DNA of 64,000 nucleotides from a bacterium. GTDB lineage: Bacteria; Patescibacteriota; UBA1384; VFKW01. This document shows positions 1 through 60,974 of this stretch, in pieces. Made by a program: the position numbers and the translations under genes. Below the pieces are notes generated by a model. The model did not search any database. It was not told where the DNA came from and worked only from the letters and a program-made list of their open reading frames with translations. Within the stretch, counting starts at the first letter, position 1; every line of letters begins with the position of its first letter. The stretch lies in contig JAUSIS010000013.1 of the NCBI GenBank assembly GCA_030647355.1, forward strand, positions 113,117 to 177,116. The letters are read 5' to 3'.

Positions 1-1233
1 GCCTGTTTTATGGCAGCCCTGCTCACTTCCGACTATCAGAATTTAGATCGAATTACTATCGAAATTGAAGAATGCAACAGAATGGGCATGGAAGTCTTGG
101 CTCCAAATGTAAATGAGTCGTTCGTAGAATTTGGCGTCCTTAAAGAGACAAATAACATTAGCTTTGGTCTAGCTGCAATCAAAAATGTCGGGGTCGGTGT
201 CGCCAAAGCTATTGTAGATGAGAGGAAAGTTGCAGGCTCTTATCAATCTATAGAAGACTTTGCCTCAAGACTCGGTACTAATATAATGAATAAAAAAGTA
301 CTTGAGGCATTAATTAAATCAGGCGCCCTAGACTGTTTTGGTGAGCGAAACCAGCTATTAGCCGGTGTAGAATTAATTTTGAAGTTCACCTCAAATTTCG
401 AAAAAATGCTCTCATCGAGCCAGCTAGACCTGTTTACAAATACTAAAATACGCAGTAAAACCCAATCAGTCCCCTTCCCTCAAGTTACATCAGCCGATAA
501 AAAACAGATTCTAGCTTGGGAGAAAGAACTCTTAGGAATCTATCTCTCAGATCATCCTCTAAAAGCAATCCAAAATATTCTGCCAAAAATTGCTACTCCC
601 ATCAATCAGCTATCGGATAAAGTGGGATCAATCGAGCGAATAGGCGGAATCATAACAACTGTCAAAAAAATAATGACCAAAAACAATCAACCTATGATCT
701 TCATGAAATTGGAAGATTTATCCTCAAATATAGAGGTAGTAGTCTTTCCGCGCGCCTACGAAAACGTTGCCCAAGAATGCCAAGTAGATAGACTAGTCTG
801 CGTGGAAGGTAAAATTCAAAAGAAAGACAATGAGCTAAAAATAATCGCCGAGCAAATTGATGAAATCCCCTCCGACACCGAAAATTTAGTAAAATTAGAA
901 GTTAAATATCACAAGATATCTAAAGAAAACGGAAGTGAACCGAAGTTGTCAGAACCCGACGAACCCGAACCCAAAACAATAGAAACTCCTCCTTCCCCTC
1001 CGCTTGTGTTGCGGCTGGATCATTCTTCCAATAAAAAAACCCTTGAAGATATTAGACAAATCGTATCACAATATCCCGGCAATACTCCTCTAGTTCTGGA
1101 GATACCTCAAAATGATGAATACCAAAAAGTAAAAACGAAGACTAAAATTGAACTATCACCAGAGTTAATCGCTAAATTAGAGAATCTGCTCCCCAAAACA
1201 AATATTCTTACTCCAACCCTGGAAACTGATTAG
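1..1233 (+). CDS. dnaE: DNA polymerase III alpha subunit, C-terminal fragment (gene continues upstream of window)
   Basis: ORF open to the left edge. The ISFGLAAIKNVG segment resembles the DnaE C-terminal/OB-fold region (FGLGAIKGVG). AT-rich backbone composition. Confidence 0.65.
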   Translation, partial: ACFMAALLTSDYQNLDRITIEIEECNRMGMEVLAPNVNESFVEFGVLKETNNISFGLAAIKNVGVGVAKAIVDERKVAGSYQSIEDFASRLGTNIMNKKVLEALIKSGALDCFGERNQLLAGVELILKFTSNFEKMLSSSQLDLFTNTKIRSKTQSVPFPQVTSADKKQILAWEKELLGIYLSDHPLKAIQNILPKIATPINQLSDKVGSIERIGGIITTVKKIMTKNNQPMIFMKLEDLSSNIEVVVFPRAYENVAQECQVDRLVCVEGKIQKKDNELKIIAEQIDEIPSDTENLVKLEVKYHKISKENGSEPKLSEPDEPEPKTIETPPSPPLVLRLDHSSNKKTLEDIRQIVSQYPGNTPLVLEIPQNDEYQKVKTKTKIELSPELIAKLENLLPKTNILTPTLETD

Positions 1234-1790
1234 GTCTTAGTCTTTTTCGGCACTTCTTCTCCGAAACTATCTTGAAATTCTATTTTACCGGACATTTCAT
1301 TCTTCATCAGGTTGTGAGCTTTAACGATCTGCTGTTGCACATCATAAGGGTCAGTCACGCTTGCTAGTTCCATACCTTCATTAGAACTAGCGGTTTTGAT
1401 ATGTATCGTGCCGAAATTGATCATCATTTGTATCGGTCCTTTCATCTCTGTAGAAATATCTTGAATTCTATCCAGCTCCATTTCACTTATAACCCTGTGA
1501 AAAATACTGCTTTGATCAACCTTGATAATTCGCTGGTTAGTAAGCATATAATTGCTATTGGACCATAAATACCAACGATAGCCAACCAAAAAGCCAGCCG
1601 CTAGTACAAAAATGAACAGCAGATAAGAAAAGACACCGCTTGCACCAAACATAATTAAGGCAAATACAACTACATTTGCTAAAATTAAAATTATAATACC
1701 TGTTTTGGCAAAAACCCAAGCATTTTGCTTAACAATCAGAAGAACATCTTCATCATCCCTTTGCCCGCGAAATGTATAGTCTTCTGTCAA
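1230..1790 (-). CDS. Membrane protein with bacterial PH domain (bPH_2/YdbS-YdbT-like)
   Basis: Two N-terminal TM helices followed by the NQRIIKVD...TAS pattern typical of bPH_2. Apparent TTG start 3 nt after a GGAGGGG RBS. Confidence 0.5.
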   Translation of the reverse strand: MTEDYTFRGQRDDEDVLLIVKQNAWVFAKTGIIILILANVVVFALIMFGASGVFSYLLFIFVLAAGFLVGYRWYLWSNSNYMLTNQRIIKVDQSSIFHRVISEMELDRIQDISTEMKGPIQMMINFGTIHIKTASSNEGMELASVTDPYDVQQQIVKAHNLMKNEMSGKIEFQDSFGEEVPKKTKT

Positions 1791-1815
1791 AACCCCTCCA
1801 AGAATAATATGGTTA

Positions 1816-1982
1816 GTATATGTTGGTTAGTAAATAAATTGCCGGTAAGATACCGAATACCCAGATTGGCATCAAAGCAATAAAGAAGAGCAATAATATC
1901 GTGAGGGAAATCTTATTAACTAACAGTTGTGTATTATCTCCTTTAATGACTTTATTAATTATTATGATTCTGCTTTGCTTCA
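1816..1982 (-). CDS. Small hydrophobic protein (55 aa), translationally coupled to upstream transferase
   Basis: ORF MKQSRIIIINKV...LLTNIY not in the supplied track. Its ATG overlaps the TGA stop of the upstream gene (ATGA). Single predicted TM segment. Confidence 0.3.
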
Positions 1983-3122
1983 TCTATCCTTCTTAATTCT
2001 TCTGATCCATTCTAACATAACCAGCCCACCCGATAAAAAAAGCATCACCCCAATCAGCCAAATAAGAGCCCAAAATTTTCCTTCCGGACCGGTTCTCAAG
2101 GCAACATATCCAAAAATAATCGAACCGGCATACAGCATCAAAACAGTCTGTTTAACTGTCAACCCTGCTCGCATTAACCTGTGGTGAATATGATTTTGAT
2201 CTGCCTCAAAAGGTGATTTATGGTGAATCAGTCGGTTGCTGACGACCCATATACCATCCAAAAGAGGTAATCCCATAATAAGCGAGGCTGTCGCCACCTT
2301 TCCCCCGGAAATTATTGCCAGTATTGCCAACATATATCCCAAAAACATACTTCCGGTATCCCCCAGAAACATCCGAGCCGGACTAAAATTAAAAGGTAAA
2401 AAACCAAATACACTTCCGGCTAAAATTATCGCCAATATCGCAACTGCCGGTTGATTTATTCTAGGACTAATCGCCAACAAGAAGATCGCCAAAGTAGCAA
2501 TAATCACAACTCCACTGGCCAGTCCGTCTACCCCGTCTAGCCAATTCACCACATTCATTATTAAAACTATCCATAGCACAACAAATAGCTGTCCCCAGCT
2601 AAACGAAAAATTCCCAATTGTAAATATTGTCTGATCCAAATGAATGAGAGAATCAAAGGGATTATTAATCCAATTAATTGTCACCCCGAATCCTGCAACC
2701 GCAAACCCTGCTAAAAACTGAGCTAATAGTTTCCCAGACCACTTCACTCCTTTAATGTCGTCATAGAGCATCACCGAAGCGATTATCAAAGCCCCTAAGA
2801 GCACACCGAATAAATTTCTGTCCAAACCCCAAACCGTTTCATCAACGAACTTCAATCTATCGGCACTAAACACCAAAATCAAAGTGACCACCAGCCAAAA
2901 ACTGATGAATATTCCTAGCCCGCCGATTCTAGGCAGAGGTTTGGAATGTATATCGCGATCTCGCACTCTTTGAGTGATATTTTTCAAAATTGCCCATTTT
3001 CGCAACCGAAAACAAACAGCGAATGAAATAATTCCTACTGCAACTACTAGAAACAAATAAGACCAAACCATTTCCATTAATCCTCCGGGCAAATCATCAA
3101 TCAGCGTTTTACTTTGCCCCAA
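1980..3122 (-). CDS. Glycosyltransferase family 4, polyprenyl-phosphate sugar-phosphate transferase (MraY/WecA type)
   Basis: Multi-TM protein with a DD motif (MLYDDIKG), NVVNWLDGVDGLASG (NxxNxxDGxDGL) and an HIHHRL motif. Confidence 0.7.
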   Translation of the reverse strand: MGQSKTLIDDLPGGLMEMVWSYLFLVVAVGIISFAVCFRLRKWAILKNITQRVRDRDIHSKPLPRIGGLGIFISFWLVVTLILVFSADRLKFVDETVWGLDRNLFGVLLGALIIASVMLYDDIKGVKWSGKLLAQFLAGFAVAGFGVTINWINNPFDSLIHLDQTIFTIGNFSFSWGQLFVVLWIVLIMNVVNWLDGVDGLASGVVIIATLAIFLLAISPRINQPAVAILAIILAGSVFGFLPFNFSPARMFLGDTGSMFLGYMLAILAIISGGKVATASLIMGLPLLDGIWVVSNRLIHHKSPFEADQNHIHHRLMRAGLTVKQTVLMLYAGSIIFGYVALRTGPEGKFWALIWLIGVMLFLSGGLVMLEWIRRIKKDR

Positions 3123-3694
3123 TCGGTGCCATGCATAATTTGGGAAATTACCAAATCATAATCTAGGATTTCTTCTTTTTTAAACCATAACTCAATCTCA
3201 CACTTGGCTTCCTCAACCGAACCGGAAGCATGAACTAATGTTTGCATTGATCTACCTAGTTTGTCAGCTACACTATATGACTCTTGAGAATAGTCGCCCC
3301 TGATACTGCCTAAATCGGCAGTTAATGGATTGGTAGTTCCAACCGTCTTCCTGCCAAGTTCAACAGCATGCGCACCTTCCCATATCATCGCTAACATTGG
3401 TCGCCCGCTGTAATACTCGATTAGCCCCTCGCGTATCTGGGTAGCCAGTTCGCGGGGTGTTAAATCAATTTTATTTCCCCACGCTTCGTGTCCTTTGAGT
3501 GCGTTCGTCCCCGTTGGAATAAGCCACGCATCATCATTAGGATAATGTTTGCCAATAAGCTCTTCCGTCGGTGCAATTAATTTCGCCGCAACCAGTTTAA
3601 GACCCCTGCGCTCGAATCTGGTTATTAACTCGCCGATTAATTGCCGCTGAACCGACTCCGGTTTAATCGCAATAAACGTCTGCTCTTTTACCAT
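3101..3694 (-). CDS. ndk: Nucleoside diphosphate kinase, with an internal insertion
   Basis: IAIKPESVQRQLIGELITRFERRGLKLVA, a catalytic His in LVHASGS, and EEAKCEIELWF. Confidence 0.85.
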   Translation of the reverse strand: MVKEQTFIAIKPESVQRQLIGELITRFERRGLKLVAAKLIAPTEELIGKHYPNDDAWLIPTGTNALKGHEAWGNKIDLTPRELATQIREGLIEYYSGRPMLAMIWEGAHAVELGRKTVGTTNPLTADLGSIRGDYSQESYSVADKLGRSMQTLVHASGSVEEAKCEIELWFKKEEILDYDLVISQIMHGTDWGKVKR

Positions 3695-3746
3695 CTATCC
3701 TCCAAAAATCAACTACTTATTATATATTCTAATACATTTTATTCAA

Positions 3747-5018
3747 TCAGTCCATATCAAGTAGAGATTGTAGTTTGTTCCCATCCTTAAGCGGAGCGAC
3801 AATAGCCAAGTTCAAGTTCTTATTAATAAATATTCGTTTGGCAACCCTCATCACATCTTCTGCTGTCACACTTTCAATCTTCTTAATAACTTGATCGGCA
3901 GTCAATACTTCAGGCATTAAAAGCTCCTGCCTACCGAACCAGCCAGAGACGCTATCTGTATCATCCATGGACAAACTTATCGCGCCCTTTAGATAATCTT
4001 TGGCTTTTTGCAATTCGTCAGGGCGGACAATCACATCCCGCAGTAATTTAAATTCCTTAATCACCCCCTCTATCGCTTCCTCTAATTTACCTAAATTTAA
4101 TCCTGCATGCACGATCAATGCGCCAGTGTCCTCATATGATTCGATATGTGATGAAATGTGATAAGCCAAACCTTTTTCTTCCCGTATCTTTAAAAATAAT
4201 CGAGAACTCATCCCTTGACCCAAAATACAGTTAAGCAAATTCCAAGTGTATCGATCAGGATCGGTGTTCCCAAAACCTCTTACACCTAAAGCTAAATGCG
4301 CCTGATCAGTCTGCTTAAAATAAACCGATTTCTTGGGTTCTTTCTGTACTTCATACGCCTTCTTTGAAACAAGAATCTTACCATTAGTAGCTTTACCAAA
4401 AATACTACCAAAACCGTCAACCACTTTCTGATGGGTAATATTCCCGGCAACTGATATAACAATAGAGTTACCTTGATAGAAACTATTCAGGTACGAAATA
4501 AAATCTTTCCGCTTGATATTCTGAATATTGTTCTTACTGCCAACTATTGGCCAGCCCAATGGCTGATCGGGCCACATTAAACCAATAAGAAGTTCATATA
4601 CATGACTAGGCGGGTCATCGTAACGGCGGTTAATTTCTTCCACGATCACTCCGCGCTCCCGATCAATCGCTTCTTTCTCTAATAGAGAACTAAAAACCAT
4701 TTCCCCTAGTACTTCAAATCCGCGTTTGGCAAACTCAAAAGGTAACAAATTCCAATACGCTGTATGATCCTGATCTGTCCAGGCATTCAATTGACCGCCT
4801 ACACCTTCAATTGCTCTAGCAATATCTGCTTGGCCAGGATATTTCTTGGTGCCCTTAAAAAGCATATGCTCCAGAAAATGTGAAATACCGTTTATCTTCT
4901 CCGTCTCATAACGGCTCCCCGCTTTTACATATACCGTAGTTGCCAGCGAACGCATATGCGGCATCTCCGATGTCAAAATTCTTACCCCATTTGCTAAAAT
5001 CGTTTTTTTATAATCCAT
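3747..5018 (-). CDS. M16 family zinc peptidase (pitrilysin-like)
   Basis: Inverted zincin motif HFLEHMLFKGT (HxxEH) near the N-terminus. Length and architecture typical of M16. Confidence 0.8.
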   Translation of the reverse strand: MDYKKTILANGVRILTSEMPHMRSLATTVYVKAGSRYETEKINGISHFLEHMLFKGTKKYPGQADIARAIEGVGGQLNAWTDQDHTAYWNLLPFEFAKRGFEVLGEMVFSSLLEKEAIDRERGVIVEEINRRYDDPPSHVYELLIGLMWPDQPLGWPIVGSKNNIQNIKRKDFISYLNSFYQGNSIVISVAGNITHQKVVDGFGSIFGKATNGKILVSKKAYEVQKEPKKSVYFKQTDQAHLALGVRGFGNTDPDRYTWNLLNCILGQGMSSRLFLKIREEKGLAYHISSHIESYEDTGALIVHAGLNLGKLEEAIEGVIKEFKLLRDVIVRPDELQKAKDYLKGAISLSMDDTDSVSGWFGRQELLMPEVLTADQVIKKIESVTAEDVMRVAKRIFINKNLNLAIVAPLKDGNKLQSLLDMD

Positions 5019-5210
5019 TCGTACTTCCTTTGTTTAATATTAGATGAATTAGTGTAAGCAATCAAGGACACTAAAAATATTACGATAATTAAATATATAT
5101 ATTAGGAGGAACAATTAAAAAACGCCAATATAAACGCCAAAAGATTTGACACTTGACAATACAAATAATAAACTAGATATAGATAATAAAATAAGCAACT
5201 GGGAGGGGAT

Positions 5211-6668
5211 ATGTCACTAAGCGCGCCTTTGGATAAAATAATTCCACTAACTGACGCTCGAGATAATTTCTCAAAAATAGTTTCCGAAATAGAGAAAACT
5301 ACTGAAGGCATGTATGTCCTAACCAAAGGCGGCAAACCGTCCGTAGCTATTATCAATATTAATTATTTAGAACGCTTAACCGGCGGTCCATTAATCAAGC
5401 CAAGCGAAGAAAATGAGCAAACAGCTGACGAAGCCGATACCCCAAGCGATGAATCATCCAAACTGGCAAAATTTGACGATAAGTCAGCAGATAAACAAAA
5501 CGATACCAAACAAGACGACGATATTAAAAAAACTCCGACCGGTTTCATAAAACCCGCAATACCCAATACTCCATCATTTACCCCCCCGCCTGCTATAAAA
5601 CCCATCATTCCCATTACCCCCTCTAGCCCTCCAGCCACCCCAACTCCCTCTCCGTCAACTTCCACACCCTCTACACCAAAACCTCCCACACTGGCGCCAC
5701 CCCAACCGCCAATTATAAAACCGGCACCATTTACCCCTCAAGCACCATTCAAACCAACCACCCCCCCGCCTGCCGTCCCATCTCCAAGTACCAATAATCC
5801 TCCGGCACCTACCCCTAAACCACAAGTCAACAACCTCGCTTCCAGTATGAAAACCCCGCCGGCGATCGCCGCTGTTCAAGCGCAGACCCAAACTCCCCCT
5901 GCTCCATCGCCAACCCCGCCCCCGCCAAAAATAAATCCTACCTGGTTAAATCCGGCGCCTCCCACTCCGCCAGCTCCGCCAACCAACCAAACCCCTCCTG
6001 CACAACCGGCCAGCCAACCAATATCGCCGACCGCCGTCTCGACACCCCCCCTGCCGACACCCAAGAATAATACACCAACCCCTGTAACCGCCAATCCAAG
6101 TGGAGCACCTACCCAATCTCCGTCCGCCCCAGGTATACCCCAACCACAACCAACACCTTTTAACGTTCCGAACCAGACACCACCCGCAGCGCCAAAAATA
6201 AATCCTACTTGGCTAAATCCAGCAGCGCCTACCCCTCCCGCTAACCAACCAGCCAGTATGCCGCCAACCCCCCCACCCGCCGCTTCTATCCCAACCAATC
6301 CAACACCACCCATTACCAACCAACCTCCACAACAACCTGCAAAACCCTACAGCCCGCAATTTAACTCCGGAAGCGGTGCTGCTCGAACATTAAGTGTCAA
6401 CCAACCAACTACTGCTCCGACCCCTAACACACCAACCCCGACATCCCCAGTTGCAACAGTCCCCGCCCAAACACCTCCCACCCAAGCTCCCCAAAACCCG
6501 CCAATATCCCCTCCCCCCATCACAAATACGGTTGCCATGACACCCCCGACAACTCCAACTCAACCAGCTACTCCAGCACCCTCTAATCCCACACCCCCCC
6601 AAACTCCACCGATACCTCCCCCGCCTGCTCCTCCTGCAGCCAATTCAGTATCAGATATGGAAATATAG
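5211..6668 (+). CDS. Phd/YefM antitoxin-like N-terminal domain fused to a ~400-aa Pro/Thr-rich low-complexity tail
   Basis: N-terminus LTDARDNFSKIVSEIEKTTEGMYVLTKGGKPSVAIININYLERL matches the YefM/Phd fold. The remainder is P/T/A-rich with an internal repeat, (P/A)PKINPTWLNPA(P/A)PTPPA, present twice. Confidence 0.55.
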   Translation: MSLSAPLDKIIPLTDARDNFSKIVSEIEKTTEGMYVLTKGGKPSVAIININYLERLTGGPLIKPSEENEQTADEADTPSDESSKLAKFDDKSADKQNDTKQDDDIKKTPTGFIKPAIPNTPSFTPPPAIKPIIPITPSSPPATPTPSPSTSTPSTPKPPTLAPPQPPIIKPAPFTPQAPFKPTTPPPAVPSPSTNNPPAPTPKPQVNNLASSMKTPPAIAAVQAQTQTPPAPSPTPPPPKINPTWLNPAPPTPPAPPTNQTPPAQPASQPISPTAVSTPPLPTPKNNTPTPVTANPSGAPTQSPSAPGIPQPQPTPFNVPNQTPPAAPKINPTWLNPAAPTPPANQPASMPPTPPPAASIPTNPTPPITNQPPQQPAKPYSPQFNSGSGAARTLSVNQPTTAPTPNTPTPTSPVATVPAQTPPTQAPQNPPISPPPITNTVAMTPPTTPTQPATPAPSNPTPPQTPPIPPPPAPPAANSVSDMEI

Positions 6669-21335: not shown

Positions 21336-21399
21336 ATGATTCTCTTTTGCAGGAAGACGAAATAAGCTAACGCTTCTAAACTCTAATTAAAAAGAATAG

Positions 21400-21665
21400 C
21401 TCCCGCTTCATCGCTCCTTTGTTTCTTTGAAAAGGAGAAGTCAATTACGCTCCCAAAGAAGCCTCGGCCACAGGATGGAATCCTAGTGGAACGCTGGGAG
21501 TGTCTTTGAGGAAGTAATTTATTTTCGACGCTTCCCAAGAAGTCGTGCAGGGGTATGGGATTGTAAGGGACATAGGGGGCGGCATCGAAACGAGCCCCCT
21601 TACCCCTTACATACCCTGGCGCTGTCAGCGCCAAAAACCCAGGCATGTCCCATGCCCTCAAACAA
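21400..21665. ncRNA. GC-rich structured intergenic element (candidate small RNA; strand and class unknown)
   Basis: GC-rich island between two AT-rich genes. Nested hairpins CCTGGCGCTGTCAGCGCCAAAAACCCAGG and GGGGGCGGCATCGAAACGAGCCCCC. The 99-aa minus-strand ORF across it looks spurious. Confidence 0.3.
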
Positions 21666-21719
21666 TCTATGCTATAATACAAATAGTAAACTCACTCAAA
21701 AAATAAAAAAGGAGAGGAA

Positions 21720-22439
21720 ATGTTGGAGCTCAAAGATGTAACTAAAAAATTCGGCCCCATAACCGCCGTAGATAATTTATCTTTTGAAATAAACGAAGGC
21801 GAAATAGTCGGCCTCATCGGCCCAAACGGCTCCGGCAAAACCACCGCCCTCAAAATGATTGCCGGCCTCTACCGCCCAACTTCCGGCAAAATAACCATCA
21901 AAAACCACGATGTCGCCAAAGACGCCGAAGAAACTCGCGCTCTTCTCGGCTACATTCCGGATGAACCGGCTGTCTACAGCAAACTGACCGGCGACGAATT
22001 CCTCAATTTTGTCGGAGAAACATTTGGCATCCCCGCCGACAAACGCCAAAGCGCCATTGCCGAACTCCACAAACAATTCCCAATGGAAGAACAAACCGGC
22101 GGCTATTTTGAAGATTATTCCCGCGGCACCCGCCAAAAATTTATGATCATGGCCGCCTTACTTCACAAATCGCCTTTGCTTTTGATTGACGAGCCGATAG
22201 TCGGCCTCGACCCCTCGAGCGCCCACACCGCCACTCGCCTCTTCTCCGAATATGCCAAAGAAGACAAAAGAGCCATTCTCGTCTCCACCCATTCTCTGGC
22301 AGTCGCCCAAGAACTCTGCGACCGCTTCATCGTCTTATCAAAAGGCAAAATGGTTGCCCAAGGGTCGCTGAGCGAACTGCGCAAAGACGCCCAAACCGAC
22401 GGCTCTTTAGAGCAAATCTATCTCAAACTGGCAGAATAA
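21720..22439 (+). CDS. ABC transporter ATP-binding protein
   Basis: Walker A GPNGSGKTT, signature region, Walker B LLLIDEP, and an H-loop. Confidence 0.85.
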   Translation: MLELKDVTKKFGPITAVDNLSFEINEGEIVGLIGPNGSGKTTALKMIAGLYRPTSGKITIKNHDVAKDAEETRALLGYIPDEPAVYSKLTGDEFLNFVGETFGIPADKRQSAIAELHKQFPMEEQTGGYFEDYSRGTRQKFMIMAALLHKSPLLLIDEPIVGLDPSSAHTATRLFSEYAKEDKRAILVSTHSLAVAQELCDRFIVLSKGKMVAQGSLSELRKDAQTDGSLEQIYLKLAE

Positions 22440-24084: not shown

Positions 24085-24843
24085 TTATTGCACTTGCGAT
24101 ACTTTCCAAAGCTGCTGGAACCAGTTGCGCATGGCAGTCGCGTTTTCCCTGGAAGTAATCACCACACCAAAATTTTCTTTTATTGAGGTCAAAATTGCTA
24201 CATTATCGCCATAAATATAATAATGCGCCGGACACTCAAAACCAACTGGCCCTATTCGCCTCTTTCTCAAGCCTTCCTTCGGATCAAAAAATGAATCAAT
24301 CTTGCCTCTAACCCATACCGAGCGCGTCCAAATCCCCTTCTTTACCTTTCGAGCCACCCAATCAATAAAAAAATTCTTATCCAAAATATCAGTCAATTTG
24401 TTAGTTTCTCCGACATAATAAATCTCATCAACTGGCGTCTCAAGAATCTCCTCGTAAATCGCCTTAATCTCCTCACCTCGGAAAAACCGGACCCTTGGCT
24501 GAAACGGCGAAAACTCGTATAACCGGTTGAATTCCGGCAGAAATTTCTCCAAATTCTCCGCCTGTTCCTGCAATTTCTCCTGCTTGCCTCGAATCAGCGT
24601 CATAATCTTACGAGGCGGATAAGGTATATAAATCCGACGTGTTGCCGTCTGCGTAATCTCAATTAATCCCCTATCTCTTAAGTTTTCTAATTCATGAAAA
24701 ACCGTCGTCCTCGGCAAACCAGTCTTTTCTTTAATTGACACTATACTCGATTCACCAAGTTCAAGACAAGCCAAATAAACTTCAATCTCTTTTTCACTTA
24801 AATCCAATTGTTTTAAAAAATCATCGAATTGCATACTGTCCAC
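24085..24843 (-). CDS. TrmB family transcriptional regulator
   Basis: N-terminal HTH LSEKEIEVYLACLELGESSIVSIKEKTGLPRTTVFHELENLRDRGLI typical of TrmB. C-terminal sensor domain. Confidence 0.7.
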   Translation of the reverse strand: MDSMQFDDFLKQLDLSEKEIEVYLACLELGESSIVSIKEKTGLPRTTVFHELENLRDRGLIEITQTATRRIYIPYPPRKIMTLIRGKQEKLQEQAENLEKFLPEFNRLYEFSPFQPRVRFFRGEEIKAIYEEILETPVDEIYYVGETNKLTDILDKNFFIDWVARKVKKGIWTRSVWVRGKIDSFFDPKEGLRKRRIGPVGFECPAHYYIYGDNVAILTSIKENFGVVITSRENATAMRNWFQQLWKVSQVQ

Positions 24844-24974
24844 CTATTTGGATGATATTAGGAATTGATTTAATCTTACAATAAGCCAAATAACCTGTCA
24901 ATATGGCAATTGGTATCCAATGGTATTGACATTTTTTTGCTCTTAGCGGATAATTTCACGTCAAGCTTAAAGCT

Positions 24975-25165
24975 GACAAAGAACCCATTGCACAAGTCTC
25001 TTAGGTACGAAACAGGAAAGATTATCGACGAAAGACTAGAACTTATGAGGAAACGTAGCCAAAGCTACGTTGACAAATAATTCTTGGCTTGCAGTCATAA
25101 GATTCCCTGCTGCAGTAACCAATAGATCCTGTGAAATGGGTTCGTTACCTTAACAAGAAAGGAAC
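24975..25165 (+). promoter_or_regulatory. Long structured leader upstream of the secreted-protein/radical-SAM operon (riboswitch-like architecture, class unknown)
   Basis: Promoter TTGACA-N17-GATAAT at ~24927-24955. Long-range pairing GAACCCATT (~25003) with AATGGGTTC (~25133) encloses about 120 nt containing the hairpin CGTAGCCAAAGCTACG. Confidence 0.3.
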
Positions 25166-25741
25166 ATGACCCTAATGAAACGTCTGATCATGGCAGTCCT
25201 GGCAGTATTTCTCATTTCTACCTCCCGCACCACCGCCGACCAGCTGGACACCCAGTTCAACTCCTCCCTTACCTGGAACCAGGACGGCATAACCAGCAAA
25301 TACATCCATAGGGAGGCCTACTTTGCCCATCTACGGGAGAATGAGGTGAACATCGGTGCTAGAGTCTCTGATAATCTGACACTGTACGGCGCCTACATCA
25401 CCAACAACCAAGGGGTAGATCGGGCCGGTATCGTCATCGCCATATCCCAACCGCTGGATAGTAAATGGCATGCCTCCGCCAGTCTTCACCTCTACAAAGG
25501 GCTGAACTCCGCTCCCGACAGGTTCAAATGGACCTTGGTCATCGCCAAACCGGTAAGCAAACACTGGTTAGTCGGTATCTACAACTTCGGCAACAGCGTG
25601 CACGGCAATCCCAATAAGTATTGGGAAGGCGGGCCAGCGCTGATTTATCGAAATGGCGCAACAACCATCCCCATTTTCTTTCTCCTGAAAGACGAGGGAA
25701 GAAAGGGAATCCAAGCCAACCTGAACTTCGCGCTAAAATAG
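25166..25741 (+). CDS. Secreted hypothetical protein (signal peptide, beta-rich)
   Basis: N-terminal signal MKRLIMAVLAVFLISTSRTTA. GC-rich. Overlaps or abuts the downstream radical SAM gene. Confidence 0.45.
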   Translation: MTLMKRLIMAVLAVFLISTSRTTADQLDTQFNSSLTWNQDGITSKYIHREAYFAHLRENEVNIGARVSDNLTLYGAYITNNQGVDRAGIVIAISQPLDSKWHASASLHLYKGLNSAPDRFKWTLVIAKPVSKHWLVGIYNFGNSVHGNPNKYWEGGPALIYRNGATTIPIFFLLKDEGRKGIQANLNFALK

Positions 25742-25752
25742 GAGGAAGCAAG

Positions 25753-27168
25753 ATGGAAACCTTTGATGCACATGGTAATGATGACCAGTATAACCGAACC
25801 TGGATACTCGAGGGCACTCACCCTCGTTACCCTGCGATTGTGCTGGTTTCGCCCCGAAACGATCCGAACCGCTATCGGCTGATAGACAGCTCTGACAAGG
25901 GAGCTAGGAAGGGCAGGCGGACACGCATGTCCCTGGGACTGCTCTTTCTGGCCAGCCATCTGCAGGAAGAAATGGGATACCAATTCAATCAGGCACGACC
26001 AACGGAGAACAGCATATTAGCAAAGCTCTCCAAGGGAAAGGTCATTGGTATTTCAACTCTCCCCAGTAGCTACCTGATTGCTACCCAATTGGCAAAGATA
26101 GCCAAGGAATCGGGCGCGATATCGGTCGTCCTTGGGGGACCTTATGCCTCCAGCTGCGCCAGGGAAGTACTCCTGAACCAGCCGGCAGTTGATCTGATCA
26201 TCAGCGGCCCGGGGCAGATACCCCTGCAAATGATCCTGGAAGACCAGGCCCCAGCCAGTATAAAGGGAGTTTCCTATCGCCAGAGAAACCAGATAGTTCA
26301 AAATACCCTACAGTGGCCGCCCTATCCTCGGACAGATACCGACTATTCTCTCTGGACAAGGCAATCTGACGAACATCATGCTCTCACCTACTGGCAAGAC
26401 GGCTGCCCGGTGGGATGCAGACAACCATGCGTCTTTTGCTTCTCCCGCAAAACTACTCCCGTCAGATGTCCAAGCGAGCAAGTTATACGAGAAACAAGAG
26501 CGCTGGTTAATCAAGGGTATAAGACTGTCGAGGATGGAGGGGATGATTTCCCCTGCGGCGGAATACAAACCTATGGCTGGTTAGAATCCCTTATGACAGC
26601 TAAGACCAGGGAAAAGCTCAAACTCGATATGTTCATCCACACATCAGTCAGGAGTGCCACCTGGCAATTCCCGGAACACAGCGAGCTTTGGATGATCAAA
26701 CGCCTTAGGGATATCGGCGTCAAGACCATGCAAGTAGGCTTCGAAACAGATAATCCTTACCAGATGGTGCTCGAGAAAGAATCTCCCGATAAGATCGAGT
26801 TCCTAATCCGTACCGCTCGAGAGTTGGGCATGAATTTCTTCGGAAGTTGGATATTCGGTCATCAAGGGGAAAGTCGAGCAACCATGCTCCGGACAGTAGA
26901 GAAAATCTACTCGATTCACGAACAAGGCCTCCTTTGGGGGCTGCAGTTTGACCTCCTCTGGCCAGGCCCCTCAACTCGCGCCCTCCAAATGCTCCTACCC
27001 GATCATCCCGAGTGGCAAGATCGGGACTTCCTCCCACCAGAAGAGGTCATATCCGCCTGGTTCAAGACCTACACCAAGACCACATTAGACGAAGCGAGAA
27101 ACCTGCGCAATCAAGTCGTCGTAGATCTCTATGACCAGCTAAATTGCGTCGGCAGCATGCTTCTATAA
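25753..27168 (+). CDS. B12-binding domain radical SAM protein
   Basis: N-terminal Rossmann-like B12-binding region (VIGISTLPSSYL...VVLGGPYAS). Radical SAM CxxxCxxC motif in the CRQPCVFC segment. AGGAGG RBS before ATG at 25753. Confidence 0.7.
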   Translation: METFDAHGNDDQYNRTWILEGTHPRYPAIVLVSPRNDPNRYRLIDSSDKGARKGRRTRMSLGLLFLASHLQEEMGYQFNQARPTENSILAKLSKGKVIGISTLPSSYLIATQLAKIAKESGAISVVLGGPYASSCAREVLLNQPAVDLIISGPGQIPLQMILEDQAPASIKGVSYRQRNQIVQNTLQWPPYPRTDTDYSLWTRQSDEHHALTYWQDGCPVGCRQPCVFCFSRKTTPVRCPSEQVIRETRALVNQGYKTVEDGGDDFPCGGIQTYGWLESLMTAKTREKLKLDMFIHTSVRSATWQFPEHSELWMIKRLRDIGVKTMQVGFETDNPYQMVLEKESPDKIEFLIRTARELGMNFFGSWIFGHQGESRATMLRTVEKIYSIHEQGLLWGLQFDLLWPGPSTRALQMLLPDHPEWQDRDFLPPEEVISAWFKTYTKTTLDEARNLRNQVVVDLYDQLNCVGSMLL

Positions 27169-27186
27169 ACCCCCACAAACCCCCAC

Positions 27187-27217
27187 CCAGCTCTTTTCAA
27201 AAAAGAGCTGGTTTTTT
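27187..27217 (+). terminator. Intrinsic terminator after radical SAM gene (CCAGCTCTTTT-CAAA-AAAAGAGCTGG+T6)
   Basis: Perfect 11-bp stem preceded by CCCCCACAAACCCCCACC. Confidence 0.65.
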
Positions 27218-34029: not shown

Positions 34030-34262
34030 TTCGCCAAACAGTATCTAGAACCCATCTTATAATTGCTTCTTGAAACGAAACTATCCTCGGCCGAGACGAG
34101 AGCGTAGGAGGTTGAGGAAGCGTAGCCACTGCTACACTGACGAAGCATCCTGCGGTAGCAGTCCGGTCCGAGATAGTTGCAGTTATCAGAGGTAGTTATA
34201 AGATGGGTTCCCAAACAATCTCCTAGTGGGATGATTGATGTAATTAATTTTCTGGAGGTTTC
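34030..34262 (+). ncRNA. Long structured 5' leader of the rpsF-ssb-rpsR operon (candidate ribosomal-protein autoregulatory leader)
   Basis: Visibly GC-rich in an AT-rich context, with multiple complementary segments (GCGTAGCCACTGCTACACTGACG, CTGCGGTAGCAG). No convincing ORF. Confidence 0.35.
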
Positions 34263-34898
34263 GTGAAGAAATACGAACTGACAACTATTACTCTGAAAGA
34301 AGACGAAGCAGACAAAGTCGCGTCTCTCATTCAAGAGCTTGGTGGAAAAATCGAAGATAGAAAAGATCTCGGCAATCGCCGGTTTGCTTATCCAATTAAC
34401 AAAGAAGCGAGCGGCATCTACACTGCATTTACCTTTTCTCTCGACGAACAAAAAATAACCGAACTCAACAAAAAACTAACCGGCAACTCTGATATCATAA
34501 GACACTTGATTATCATTACCAAAGAAATTAAGAAAGAATTCATCTCCAAGCTTTCTGAAGAGCTATCGAAAAAAACTGCCGAAAAGACAGGGGAAGAAGC
34601 TTTGGTTTCTGGTCCAGTTGAAAAAGAAGAGAAGCCGGAAGAGACCAAAGAAGCCAAAACTGAAAAAGAAAAACCCGCTGTAATATCAAAAGCAAAAGAA
34701 CCGGAGCTAAAAAAACCAGAAGAAAAGCAACCAGAAGCCGAAACTGAAAAAGTCGAGCTAAAAGAAGCAACAACAGAGGAAAAACAAGAAGAAAAACCAA
34801 CAGAAAAACCAAAAACCAAAGAACCTGAAGCCAAGAGTGAAGAGGAAGAGCGCCTCAAAAAGCTCAATGAGAAATTGGACGAACTACTTAAGGACTAA
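34263..34898 (+). CDS. rpsF: 30S ribosomal protein S6 with long acidic/lysine-rich C-terminal extension
   Basis: MKKYELTTI...GNRRFAYPI S6 core. GTG start. In the rpsF-ssb-rpsR arrangement. Confidence 0.85.
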   Translation: MKKYELTTITLKEDEADKVASLIQELGGKIEDRKDLGNRRFAYPINKEASGIYTAFTFSLDEQKITELNKKLTGNSDIIRHLIIITKEIKKEFISKLSEELSKKTAEKTGEEALVSGPVEKEEKPEETKEAKTEKEKPAVISKAKEPELKKPEEKQPEAETEKVELKEATTEEKQEEKPTEKPKTKEPEAKSEEEERLKKLNEKLDELLKD

Positions 34899-35044: not shown

Positions 35045-35560
35045 ATGTTCAGTCTAAATCGAGCCACGGTCATTGGCAATCTAACCCGCGATCCGGAACT
35101 TCGATATACCCCCAACGGACAAGCGGTCGCATCTTTTGCTATCGCTACCAATCGCCGTTGGAAAAACCAAAGCGGAGAAATGCAGGACGAAGTCCAATAT
35201 CATGAAATCGTTGCTTGGGGCAAATTGGGTGAAATCGCCAACCAAACCCTGGCTAAAGGTAAAAAGGCCTATATCGAAGGGCGAATTCAAACCCGAAGCT
35301 GGGAAGGACCTGACGGCGCCAAACGCAATAAAACCGAGATAGTCGCCGAAAACTTAATCGCTTTGAGTCCGCGTGATAATTTCGGCCAGACAGGTGATTC
35401 TGACTTCCTCTCCGAAGCCCAAGAAAGCCCCCCAGAAACAAAAAAACCTGGCAAAACCGATTCCAGCCCATCGGGCTCTAAAAGTACTGCTAAAAAGGAT
35501 TCTGACGAGGATTCCTTGGACGACAATAGTGAAATAAAACTGGAAGATATACCGTTTTAA
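35045..35560 (+). CDS. ssb: Single-stranded DNA-binding protein
   Basis: OB fold RATVIGNLTRDPELRYTPNG, an acidic disordered tail, and the C-terminal DIPF tip. Confidence 0.9.
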   Translation: MFSLNRATVIGNLTRDPELRYTPNGQAVASFAIATNRRWKNQSGEMQDEVQYHEIVAWGKLGEIANQTLAKGKKAYIEGRIQTRSWEGPDGAKRNKTEIVAENLIALSPRDNFGQTGDSDFLSEAQESPPETKKPGKTDSSPSGSKSTAKKDSDEDSLDDNSEIKLEDIPF

Positions 35561-36722: not shown

Positions 36723-39700
36723 CTATTCCTCCGCCGGCACTTCCACCACCGACGTGATCGTACCCGTCGGTAGGTAAGACACGATAAACGCCCGGGAAAT
36801 CCCTCCGTAGTAACCAGTAACTTTCATTTTATTCAATGACTGGGTGTAGGCAATAAGGTTAAGGTAAAAAACCGCATTCCGCACATAGTCTAAAGTCCCT
36901 GGATGATATTGTCGTATAAATTGCTGTGTTGCTAAGTTATTGGGAGTTGCATACCAAACAGTCCATGGAGGTGACGGGGGCTTGTAATAGTGGAATTCTT
37001 GTTCCCAATATTTATTAAACGGGCTGGCAAGGTCGTCTATATCTATTGTAATCTCAACTAAATCATCGATTAGCGCATTTCCAAATCCCCTCTTAATTGC
37101 CAGCCCATTGAGCCATTCTTTCCAATAATCACCGTCTCCCCAAGTACTTGAATCATCAGGATCGTATCCCGGCGGTACGCCTTTGGAGAAAGCACTATTC
37201 ATCAAATCTAAATATTCGATCTGGCTGGATAGGCCGGATGCGCCAGCCAACGAACGGGATGAAATAAACAGAAATCCTCCTTTATCATCCACGCTGGCTA
37301 CCGCCATATTGGCCAGATCGCAAACCTGCCGGGCATTCCCGTCATGGTCTGTTCTGGTTTCGACCTTTTCATTATCCTCATTGTAGTAAGGAAGCTTTCT
37401 TAGCTTCCATCCCGGCTTACTTTGACATGGATAAGTTGCCAGTACATCAAATTTTAGTCCTAAATCGGTAATAGCATAAGCATTTAGACCGTAACCCATA
37501 TAACCACCCGTAACATATCCGGGTTCGCCTATCTTTAACACATCCCTCAATCGGGCGCTATTTAAACGAAAAATTGGATACAAACCGTTCCGGTCATAAA
37601 GACTGGCAAAAATCGGATGAGAAAATTCTACTGATGATCCATCTGTATTGCCCGGACTATTAGACCAGACGTCAAAGCCGTATTCGTTTGGAGGTGGGCT
37701 TCCTATCGGGGGTATATCCGCCAAATCTACTTTGGGATTCTGATCGGACCGTTCATAAGCATAACTGTAATCACCGCTATAAAAAAGCAGATTACCGGCG
37801 GTCTGATCGATGCTAATCGACTGGCTGCCGCTTGTAGAAATCGGCCGGTCTAACCCAAGTTTATCGTCAGGATTATTTTTGAAAAGTTCCCAAGTCTGCT
37901 GGGTTCCGTCAGTTTTAGCGTTAAGTTTCCATAAGAAATTCTTATTCGAAAGACTCGCCCCCGAGGAGCTTCCTCCCCACAGGTAAAGAAAATCTTCTCC
38001 TGCTATAGAGGCATAGTTTAAAGATCCGGCAGTTCTCGTCCTTGGCTTCTTGCTTGGATCAGTATCAACTTTCGGATCAGAATCTACTTTGACATATCTC
38101 CAGTCAACTCTCCAGTTATCAGGTAGTCCGGCTAATTGAGAAACTTCACCTACCCACGAAATAAATGATTGATCCGAAGTGTCTGTATTCAAAACAAACA
38201 TCTTATTACTGCCATTAGAAGTAAACAGATCGCCAGACGTCAAACTATAGGAGGGTTGATACCGCAGTAGTATCCTATGATCATTGTCAGCAATACTCTC
38301 AATATTATCAACAGTCGCAATAAACAGCTTGTTATTTCCGCTGATAATCGGCCCTAATGTTATCTGCTTGCCAGCATACAAACCCCTTGCTTGAGAATCG
38401 TCAAGCTGTAAAGTTGCAGGAGCATCGGTAATCAAGTCTTTAGTGATTGATGTGCTTAAAACCTCGCTGTTATAACTGCCTAAATTTACACTAAACATGG
38501 TTAATCCGTTATTTGCCAAAACCTCGCTGGTTCCACCAAGTATTAAATTATTTTCAAACTCAATTTTTTGACATCCTCGAGATCCAGGCGGATTAGTCGA
38601 AAAACAGCTAGCATCATAAAATATTTTTTTAACAGTACCCTTCATTCTCTGATTTTGCGTTCCTTGATCATCAACCGGACCAACAAGGTACTCCATTCCC
38701 AACGCAATCCCCCTTATGGTGCCTTGAGCTACTTTCAATACTTTAACTGTATCGTTCGGCACGGAGTTATTCATCCTCCCTTCGGGCACTAAAACAGCCT
38801 CATTCTGAATACTGCCTCCCAAGTGGTACATATTAAAATTAACGTTGCTGGATACGCCCTTGGGTTTCAGAAAATGCCAGGTCGGGCTCGCAGTAGTTAC
38901 GCCGGTTAATCTCCATGATGGCTTTTGAATTTTCATGTGGCTGTATCCGCCGAATACATACAAAGTATCCTCGGAAAAAACATAATAGCCCTGCGGATTA
39001 GACATATAATTCGGGCCCTCATAGAGCTGCCTGATGGATTTAACGGGTTGACCGGCTATCACCCCGACTTCGCTAACCCTCCCCCAGTAAACCTCATCAT
39101 AACTATCGGTTTGCTCTAAGTTTGGACTGTTTCCATAATAAGTGGCGACATCTCCCGGCGCCAAGCACCTGTTGCCATTACCCAAAGGATTAGCGCTATT
39201 CGTCATCTCGTCGCAACCCGGAGTTACGGTTGTTGCATTCGATAATTGAAGGGTTAATCTCCTTGTATCCGCAACTGACTCTGTATTCCTGCCCGCCAAT
39301 GGCTGGTCAAAGTGCAATTGATATCTGTAGGTTCCAAATCCAACGTCAGTACCGTCTGGAAACCTGGTAATTTTCGAAATCTTCCCCTTTAAATCAACAT
39401 ATTCAGTATCCCCGCCCGAACCATCTTTGGGCCCGTAAACTCGTATAATATCTCCCACCGTTAATCCGTCCGGATATACCTCATCGCCCACAGCGCCATG
39501 AGGAGCATATACGCTCGAGCGCATACTTAAAGTCACTTCATGTATTTCATTAGCTGGCAGCGTCGTTTTGGGCGTGATATTCGGCTCAATCCAATAATCG
39601 GTCGTTGGATTTACGGCCGAAGAACTGTTGATTGATTTATGCGAAAACACTTCTTGGAGGTAATCTCCGTCAGCTAGTACATCTATAACCGGACGGTCTA

Positions 39701-53344: not shown

Positions 53345-53375
53345 AGCCCATTATTGGGACCGCTGAAAAACCTAA

Positions 53376-53470
53376 TTATTCTCCGAGCGATCCGCCATCC
53401 GCCAACTGGCGGAGGCGGAGAGTCGAGAAGTTTTATCCTGCTAGTTCTCGACAAGCTCGAACAATAAAGC
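53376..53470. repeat. REP-like hairpin pair upstream of groES (CCGCCATCCGCCAACTGGCGGAGGCGG; GTCGAGAAG-N15-TTCTCGAC ... CTCGAACAATAAAG)
   Basis: Inverted copies of the GTCGAGAAG unit form a hairpin. The tail CTCGAACAATAA is shared with 36650-36660. Confidence 0.5.
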
Positions 53471-53551
53471 AAAATATGCCTTTTCAAAGAAGTTTTTCAG
53501 CGGTCTCTTATTTACAGCGGGCCCTGCATCCTATCTAGTAGAAAGAATATT

Positions 53552-60767: not shown

Positions 60768-60958
60768 TATTGTTTTTGAGAGGTATCTCGCAAACCCGCT
60801 AACCCATCCCTCTTTTTCACATAAATACGATGTGCTTTTTAAAGGCCTCTCGCAGGCAAGGCAAGCTGGGTTCCCGCCAAGGCGGGGTTGCGAGCCGAGA
60901 GTGAGCGGCGATTTTCGCTGGAAAAATCGAACGCGTGCCTTTAAAAAGCACGTCGTAT
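60768..60958 (+). repeat. Copy 2 of the ~190-bp two-copy structured element (core ~60825-60958)
   Basis: Outer inverted repeat ATACGATGTGCTTTTTAAAGGC / GCCTTTAAAAAGCACGTCGTAT (one mismatch) differs from copy 1 but keeps complementarity. Confidence 0.6.
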
Positions 60959-60974
60959 TTCAACCTTTACTCTG

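Follow-up and report, generated by a model that had tools for sequence, protein, structure and literature searches.

A probably mobile 163-nt hairpin repeat in the 5′ leader of a TrmB-linked radical SAM operon of a patescibacterium

Layout of the radical SAM locus

The locus described here lies in a 64,000-nt stretch of bacterial DNA (hereafter the window; GenBank assembly GCA_030647355.1, contig JAUSIS010000013.1, positions 113,117 to 177,116), and comprises a two-gene operon for a small secreted protein and a radical S-adenosylmethionine (SAM) enzyme, a long structured leader, and a divergently transcribed regulator gene. A first-pass annotation of this DNA, made from the sequence alone, had proposed that the leader could be a ligand-sensing riboswitch and that the two genes might form a maturation system with the secreted protein as substrate. 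The reading that we favour, with moderate confidence, is a divergent unit of a TrmB-family regulator and the radical SAM gene, supplemented by an optional gene for a secreted orphan protein and by a mobile 163-nt insertion in the 5′ untranslated region (UTR) that resembles a miniature inverted-repeat transposable element (MITE). Homologues of ribosomal protein S6 place the host in the Candidate Phyla Radiation (CPR)/Patescibacteria, the nearest named relatives being Berkelbacteria and members of the ‘Patescibacteria group’. Current understanding is not overturned by any of the results that follow.

The regulator gene (24085..24843, minus strand) encodes a 252-aa winged-helix protein assigned to the TrmB family by Pfam and synteny, and is divergent from the radical SAM operon. 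Upstream of it lies the palindrome TGTCAATA-N20-TATTGACA (24896..24931, strandless), found as inverted repeat I1, which holds the −35 boxes of both divergent promoters: one TTGACA at 24901 on the minus strand and another at 24926 on the plus strand. The sigma-70-type promoter TTGACA-N17-GATAAT of the radical SAM operon (24926..24954, plus strand) is present as annotated, matching the consensus at 11 of 12 positions, and transcription is predicted to start near 24961. The 163-nt palindromic, MITE-like element follows in the 5′ UTR (24981..25143, plus strand) and corresponds to the leader that had been called riboswitch-like. The first open reading frame (ORF) spans 25166-25741 and had been annotated as a signal-peptide protein of 191 aa; the ATG at 25175, 10 nt after AAAGGAA, is the better start, giving a gene at 25175..25741 (plus strand) whose 188-aa product equals the deposited P0009. 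Its TAG stop (25739-25741) had been described as abutting the next start; the genes are indeed tightly coupled, with 11 nt separating the stop from the ATG at 25753 of the radical SAM gene (25753..27168, plus strand), which encodes 471 aa rather than the annotated 472. The intrinsic terminator that had been placed at the end of the operon is likewise there (27187..27217, plus strand), with an 11-bp stem (27187-27211; 5 G-C pairs), a 3-nt loop and a T6 tail. The promoter-to-terminator operon is genuine.

The radical SAM enzyme, its regulator and the secreted protein

The radical SAM assignment of the second gene is borne out by a match to the Pfam family Radical_SAM at 36.9 bits (cut-off 29.5), and an N-terminal B12-binding-like Rossmann domain is suggested by a Pfam match below its cut-off and by the predicted fold. 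The AlphaFold model of the protein (predicted local distance difference test, pLDDT, 82) was compared with known structures using Foldseek, in which the best matches were MgmA (9ccb), TsrM (6wte), AprD4 (6fd2), TokK (7kdx) and CysS, with E-values of 6e-15 to 1e-11 and TM-scores of 0.55-0.6 for the four structures named by code. The profile of the family, run against the sequences of the PDB, recovered AprD4, MgmA, TsrM, RimO and TokK. No SPASM or twitch domain was found with Pfam or NCBIfam, and a single cysteine lies after residue 384. Between the two subfamilies that the first-pass annotation had considered, these results favour the class B architecture and speak against a SPASM/twitch maturase. 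It should be kept in mind that a B12-type domain need not bind B12, as is the case for AprD4.

The protein shares with the class B enzymes MgmA, TsrM, TokK and AprD4 the N-terminal Rossmann B12-binding-like domain followed by the partial TIM barrel of radical SAM proteins, but differs from them in its low identity (13-19%), in reaching no curated NCBIfam family (best scores of 20-36 bits against cut-offs of 250-750, the next-nearest neighbours being unassigned too), and in the arrangement of its cysteines. The annotated CxxxCxxC motif is present in the window protein as C222-x3-C226-x2-C229; across a 12-member alignment of the family, however, the invariant residues are C218, C226 and C229, forming a Cx7-8CxxC pattern, and C222, the canonical first cysteine, is found in only 3 of the 12. 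This conserved pattern may represent a non-canonical ligand spacing for the [4Fe-4S] cluster. A word-indexed search of 5.8 billion proteins returned three relatives, and 1.84 billion representatives, searched exhaustively with a profile, yielded about 12 full-length clusters (E < 1e-59), followed by a sharp drop to generic B12-domain radical SAM proteins; alignment scans of genome and metagenome contig collections gave no relatives. By sequence and modelled fold, the enzyme is thus classified as class-B-type without SPASM or twitch domains, belonging to a very rare uncharacterised subfamily. Its most likely reaction would be a methylation or rearrangement that proceeds by a radical route and may depend on cobalamin. 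As a small group of TrmB-linked, B12-domain radical SAM proteins in Patescibacteria, hosts of very reduced metabolism, the subfamily has no characterised relative and offers a tractable target.

To define the genomic context of the subfamily, seven loci were compared (the window, L001, L002, L003, L212/L213, L214 and L215). Upstream sequence could be read at six loci, and in four of them (the window, L001, L002 and L215) the regulator gene is divergent from the radical SAM gene. In the window protein, the TrmB domain PF01978 is matched at 52.6 bits (cut-off 25.6) over residues 10-77, and the three divergent regulators that were aligned, among them the orthologues in L001 and L002, are 49-56% identical to it. 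Members of the TrmB family are known as archaeal sugar-sensing repressors. The present regulator resembles them in its winged-helix domain, which exceeds the Pfam threshold, in the divergent orientation of its gene relative to the presumed target, and in the palindrome that overlaps the promoters; it differs in its size of 252 aa with a C-terminal half lacking a recognised sugar-binding domain, and in its CPR host. The palindrome is kept in the window, L001 and L214; in the latter two loci, the block CCTGTCAATA..TATCC..ATTGACA is conserved and an equivalent of the operon promoter is present. From its position and conservation, we infer that the palindrome is a putative TrmB operator. In the proposed mechanism, the regulator and radical SAM genes would be transcribed from back-to-back promoters with their −35 boxes inside this conserved palindrome, and TrmB would bind it and control both genes in response to a ligand. 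A literature search for TrmB together with radical SAM enzymes yielded nothing relevant.

The 188-aa product of the first gene is predicted to be β-rich, and its N-terminus (MKRLIMAVLAVFLISTSRTTA, then DQ) has, by inspection alone, the look of a Sec-type signal peptide, as had been annotated. No match to it was obtained in Pfam, NCBIfam or the PDB, even at E ≤ 10, and the AlphaFold model, which the first-pass annotation had suggested as a check, is unreliable (pLDDT 38.6) and provides no usable fold. The sole detectable relative is a partial ORF located 5′ of the radical SAM gene in L003 (29% identity, E = 3e-11). Because this homologue sits just 9 nt upstream of the radical SAM orthologue, the first gene is regarded as real. 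The homologue (L003, 1-312) ends in ...GIEFDFRYNY, in which hydrophobic residues alternate and the last residue is aromatic, as in the signal of outer-membrane β-barrels, and the window protein (25700-25741) ends in ...NLNFALK. The tail of the L003 protein is odd, since CPR bacteria are as a rule considered to have no outer membrane.

The proposal of a maturase with its substrate takes a more specific form here, namely that a class B radical SAM enzyme modifies the 188-aa protein (for example by C-methylation) before its export by the Sec system. The pairing does recur in L003, and the coupling is tight in both loci (spacers of 11 nt and 9 nt) although the proteins are just 29% and 44% identical; moreover, the near neighbours of the enzyme include protein- or peptide-modifying class B enzymes (MgmA, ApyD and the rSAM_ocin_1 models), all of them scoring far under the family cut-offs. 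Other neighbours, however, act on small molecules (AprD4, TsrM, TokK, HpnJ and BchE), and the enzyme has no RiPP recognition element (RRE) in addition to lacking SPASM and twitch domains, with only one cysteine beyond residue 384. A folded, β-rich protein of 188 aa also does not resemble the precursor of a ribosomally synthesized and post-translationally modified peptide (RiPP). The gene pairing that was to be looked for in other genomes is not the conserved one: the secreted-protein gene stands beside the radical SAM gene in two of the seven loci (the window and L003) and is absent from five (L001, L002, L212/L213, L214 and L215), and the recurrent neighbour is TrmB. In L212, P0010, one of the more distant members, is encoded between a 481-aa helix-turn-helix-like protein and a NitT/TauT-type ABC importer (permease, ATPase and NMT1/THI5-like binding protein), apparently as part of one operon (842-6396). 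This arrangement hints at a small-molecule substrate. Since most members of the family occur without its gene, the 188-aa protein is probably not the substrate of the enzyme, and we regard the maturation pair as unlikely.

The 163-nt hairpin element

The long-range closing helix that had been noticed in the leader is present, with GAACCCATT (24981-24989) pairing with AATGGGTTC (25135-25143), and delimits an unbranched hairpin of 163 nt. The leader as a whole (24958-25175; 218 nt) folds at −65.4 kcal/mol with a z-score of −6.1 relative to 200 dinucleotide shuffles, and the bare element (24981-25143) at −53.9 kcal/mol. Because the opposite strand of the leader folds just as well (z = −5.75), the pairing reflects a palindrome at the DNA level. 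A search for inverted repeats throughout the window brought up a second copy (34048..34210, plus strand) with the same ends and a length of exactly 163 nt, located between a TTGCCA-N17-TATAAT promoter and rpsF (34263-34898), the gene for ribosomal protein S6. The bare second copy folds at −87.0 kcal/mol, and a separate fold run gave −99.8 kcal/mol with z = −8.2. Both copies are situated about 20 nt 3′ of a sigma-70-like −10 box and 5′ of the ribosome-binding site (RBS). They have in common the blocks GAACCCAT, ACGAAAC, GACGARAG, TGAGGAA-R-CGTAGCC-loop-GCTAC-NN-TGAC, GCAGTC, TGCAGT and ATGGGTTC, and the stems between these blocks differ, with compensatory changes at 18 of 50 pairs.

A covariance model of the element (R1), to which the two copies score 192 and 187 bits, was run over the window, there also with filters off, and over 10 kb more of this genome (about 74 kb in all), and found only these two copies, 9 kb apart. 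A weak filters-off match at 38190-38336 (20.8 bits) was rejected, as it lies inside an ORF of 1796 aa and is without terminal repeats. The first-pass annotation had recognised no known riboswitch, and Rfam 15 agrees, with no match at gathering thresholds in the whole window; at relaxed thresholds, the best result for the two copies was traJ_5 at 20.5 bits (gathering score 50), along with snoRNA noise. 6S RNA, SRP RNA, retron non-coding RNA, integron attC sites and REP/RAYT elements were dismissed by reasoning only, on account of wrong anatomy, missing partner genes or consensus ends that do not match.

None of the relatives examined has the element in its orthologous leader. For rpsF, three relatives were covered as six loci (L206-L211), in which R1 found no copy. 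The closest of them, L211, has an S6 protein 53% identical to that of the window, and the sequence in front of its rpsF can be aligned to the window on either side of the element. It reads TATAAT..TTCGCCAAAAAAAGTATCTA joined directly to AACCAAATCAAG..GGAGGTTTCGTG, also written as TATAAT..TTCGCCAAA..GTATCTA joined to AACCAAATCAAG..GGAGGTTTCGTG, where the window has TATAAT..TTCGCCAAACAGTATCTA, the 163 nt, and then CCAAACAATC..GGAGGTTTCGTG. As both flanks match with the 163 nt missing, L211 represents an empty site. Similarly, R1 detected no copy at the radical SAM loci L001, L002, L214 and L215; L001 and L214 keep the promoter and palindrome of the window, and their leader of about 55 nt runs straight into the radical SAM gene. 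The element is therefore not conserved at the orthologous position, the very outcome that the first-pass annotation had named as speaking against its proposal. As for the rpsF locus itself, the S6 protein of the window (211 aa) bears a C-terminal extension of about 110 aa that is rich in Lys, Glu and Pro, the relatives ranging from 161 to 239 aa, and a gene for a single-stranded DNA-binding protein lies 3′ of it at 35045-35560.

Beyond these relatives, a pattern scan of the GTDB species genomes returned six loci (L085-L090), two of which carry the element. In L089, from the Candidatus Saccharibacteria UBA5145, R1 scores 62.5 bits and the fold reaches −96 kcal/mol; the ends are those of the window copies, and the apex (ATGAGGAAG-stem-loop-stem-CTGACGA) contains a covarying apical stem. 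In L087, from a cyanobacterial metagenome-assembled genome (MAG), a 163-nt hairpin with the same ends is intergenic, 14 nt past the stop of one gene and about 240 nt before argB. These two copies have a terminal inverted repeat of 21 nt, agree at 19 of 21 terminal positions (GAACCCATTTnnTATCTTTTC) and have interiors that cannot be aligned; their flanks are TATA on both sides (L087) and TAT on both sides (L089). Taken together, the four copies (two in the window, L087 and L089) measure 158-163 nt and have identical ends, GAACCCAT/ATGGGTTC. The remaining four loci (L085, L086, L088 and L090), with no extended hairpin and no model score, were rejected as chance matches. Two further patterns produced no copies: the inner-loop pattern ACGAAAC..GACGANAG..TGAGGAA gave 81 loci in metagenome contigs, all coding or chance and none matching R1, and a termini-plus-apex pattern gave 115 loci in viral contigs, none with the right-hand end.

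From its shortness and its terminal inverted repeats, together with the empty site, the TA-rich flanks and the spread across phyla, we conclude that the 163-nt element is most likely a MITE-like insertion of the Correia/ERIC type and not a ligand sensor. This comparison draws on general knowledge of the Correia (NEMIS) elements of Neisseria and the ERIC elements of enterobacteria, which are likewise non-coding, 100-160 bp long and bounded by terminal inverted repeats, form long hairpins, occupy intergenic regions or UTRs where they are co-transcribed with their neighbours, and show presence/absence polymorphism and TA-type flanks (the latter here in two copies). The present family differs from them in having no sequence similarity, in its hosts (CPR/Patescibacteria and one cyanobacterial MAG), in its low number of two copies in about 74 kb with no target-site duplication at the window copies, and in that its copies are highly diverged while nonetheless keeping their pairing and apex motif. 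Literature searches on the terminal sequence and on MITEs in CPR bacteria gave nothing relevant, and no description of this repeat family was found. In the proposed course of events, an element with ends GAACCCAT...ATGGGTTC and an apex of AUGAGGAA-stem-loop-YUGAC would have landed in the 5′ UTR of the radical SAM operon, where it would be co-transcribed and fold into a hairpin of about 70 bp. Processing by RNase III is established for Correia elements, and by analogy with the Correia/ERIC families the hairpin would most likely alter the processing or stability of the mRNA (for example via RNase III) or its translation. If the MITE-like interpretation is true, the cognate insertion sequence (IS) is expected to carry GAACCCATTT...AAATGGGTTC ends. 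The identical ends in CPR and cyanobacterial MAGs hint at mobility between phyla.

Weight of the competing readings and other features of the window

According to the overall reading, the gene for the 188-aa secreted protein (found also in L003) and the 163-nt element would both have been added between the promoter and the radical SAM gene in this lineage. Several observations weigh against it. Regarding the operon, the palindrome is present in three of the five radical SAM upstream regions that were read, L002 and L215 being the exceptions; the divergent ORF of L214 (3-224, minus strand) is TrmB-like only in its first residues (MQ.DDF) despite the retained promoter and operator, which may reflect a frameshift, a pseudogene or an assembly error; and the B12-binding part of the annotated enzyme reaches 25.8 bits in Pfam, under the gathering cut-off of 32.1. 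Regarding the element, its low copy number in the region covered is a further point, together with the flanks of the window copies (A on the left and G on the right for one, TA and CC for the other), where no target-site duplication is evident, and the lack of any GAACCCAT/ATGGGTTC end pair at IS-like spacing that would reveal a cognate autonomous IS within the window. The two window copies are only about 55% identical, yet they retain near-perfect pairing and strand-specific blocks, a pattern expected from selection on RNA structure, and all four copies are co-oriented with their flanking genes. Finally, three steps are inferred, namely the binding of TrmB to the palindrome, the use of cobalamin by the enzyme, and the processing of the element by RNase III.

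Under a rival reading, the hairpin would be a cis-regulatory RNA, acting as a riboswitch or as a leader bound by a protein, that controls the radical SAM operon and rpsF, and its spread would be due to the recruitment of a functional module and not to selfish transposition. Its placement between promoter and RBS in both window copies, the very strong fold z-scores (−6 to −8), the uniform orientation of the four copies, and the strand-specific blocks ACGAAAC, GACGARAG, UGAGGAA...UGAC, GCAGUC and UGCAGU flanked by stems with 18 compensatory pairs are all consistent with such a role, as is the apex motif kept in L089 with a covarying stem. By eye, this apex (AUGAGGAA/CUGA) could be said to loosely resemble a C/D-box or K-turn-like motif. 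Structured leaders of riboswitches and ribosomal-protein operons, such as the S6:S18 leader of rpsF, also lie between promoter and RBS, and one copy does precede rpsF; they differ from the present element, which matches no Rfam family, is an unbranched 163-nt palindrome, and is not conserved at orthologous positions. It is missing from the rpsF and radical SAM leaders of all relatives examined, with a clean empty site in one of them, and the genes downstream of the window copies are functionally unrelated. The L087 copy lies just past a gene stop and some 240 nt from the next gene; what L087 and L089 have in common are long terminal repeats and TA-rich flanks, not interiors, and the inner-loop motifs were not found elsewhere, the 81 metagenome matches being spurious. 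Its form also weighs against this reading, since it is one hairpin without branches, bounded by perfect terminal inverted repeats, and folds equally well on both strands. We therefore consider a cis-regulatory RNA quite improbable, and the riboswitch proposal for the leader is abandoned in favour of a repeated palindrome that recurs in unrelated phyla. A palindromic mobile repeat has here mimicked a riboswitch in its z-score of −6, closing helix and promoter-proximal position, which calls for caution in leader-based riboswitch discovery in CPR genomes.

A more far-reaching proposal has two parts: in some CPR bacteria, a Cx7-8CxxC class B radical SAM enzyme would modify a co-transcribed secreted, perhaps β-barrel-like, protein before its export, and the hairpin would, separately, be a mobile functional RNA module and not a MITE of wholly selfish nature. 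The β-barrel-like character is suggested by the alternating-hydrophobic, outer-membrane-protein-like ...FDFRYNY tail of the L003 homologue. If true, a new system of protein modification would exist in organisms believed to have no outer membrane; we hold the combination to be rather improbable.

The base composition of the locus bears on one last alternative. The cassette is GC-rich, as annotated, with 52% against a window mean of 44% (approximately the 95th percentile of 1-kb windows), although several further genes in the window are equally rich and the composition is patchy. Recent horizontal acquisition of the cassette as a GC-rich island, with the hairpin marking one insertion boundary, is very unlikely: its GC content does exceed that of the flanking TrmB and HAD genes (41-43%), and in each of the four genomes compared the radical SAM gene is richer than the adjacent TrmB gene (by 9-16 points in the window, L001, L002 and L215; 0.589 against 0.432 in L002), but other window genes reach 51-58%, the same hairpin precedes the core gene rpsF, and relatives show synteny and co-divergence of the TrmB-radical SAM pair together with its promoter region, so that the radical SAM gene is not a recent arrival. 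Between 18000 and 34000, the GC content of the window swings from 0.31 to 0.59 in 400-nt windows.

No gene for a tRNA or tmRNA was detected over the full length of the window (1-64000), and no Rfam family reached its gathering threshold there. Other structured regions were nonetheless observed. An intergenic region 5′ of a gene for an ABC-transporter ATPase (21336-21720) folds at −113.6 kcal/mol over 321 nt (z = −5.0), has no Rfam match, and may be a repeat or non-coding RNA in its own right. Another stable hairpin region is located at 53351-53551, and an inverted repeat at 60823-60960, in which two arms of 24 nt with 96% complementarity are separated by 90 nt, is unlike the 163-nt element in sequence.

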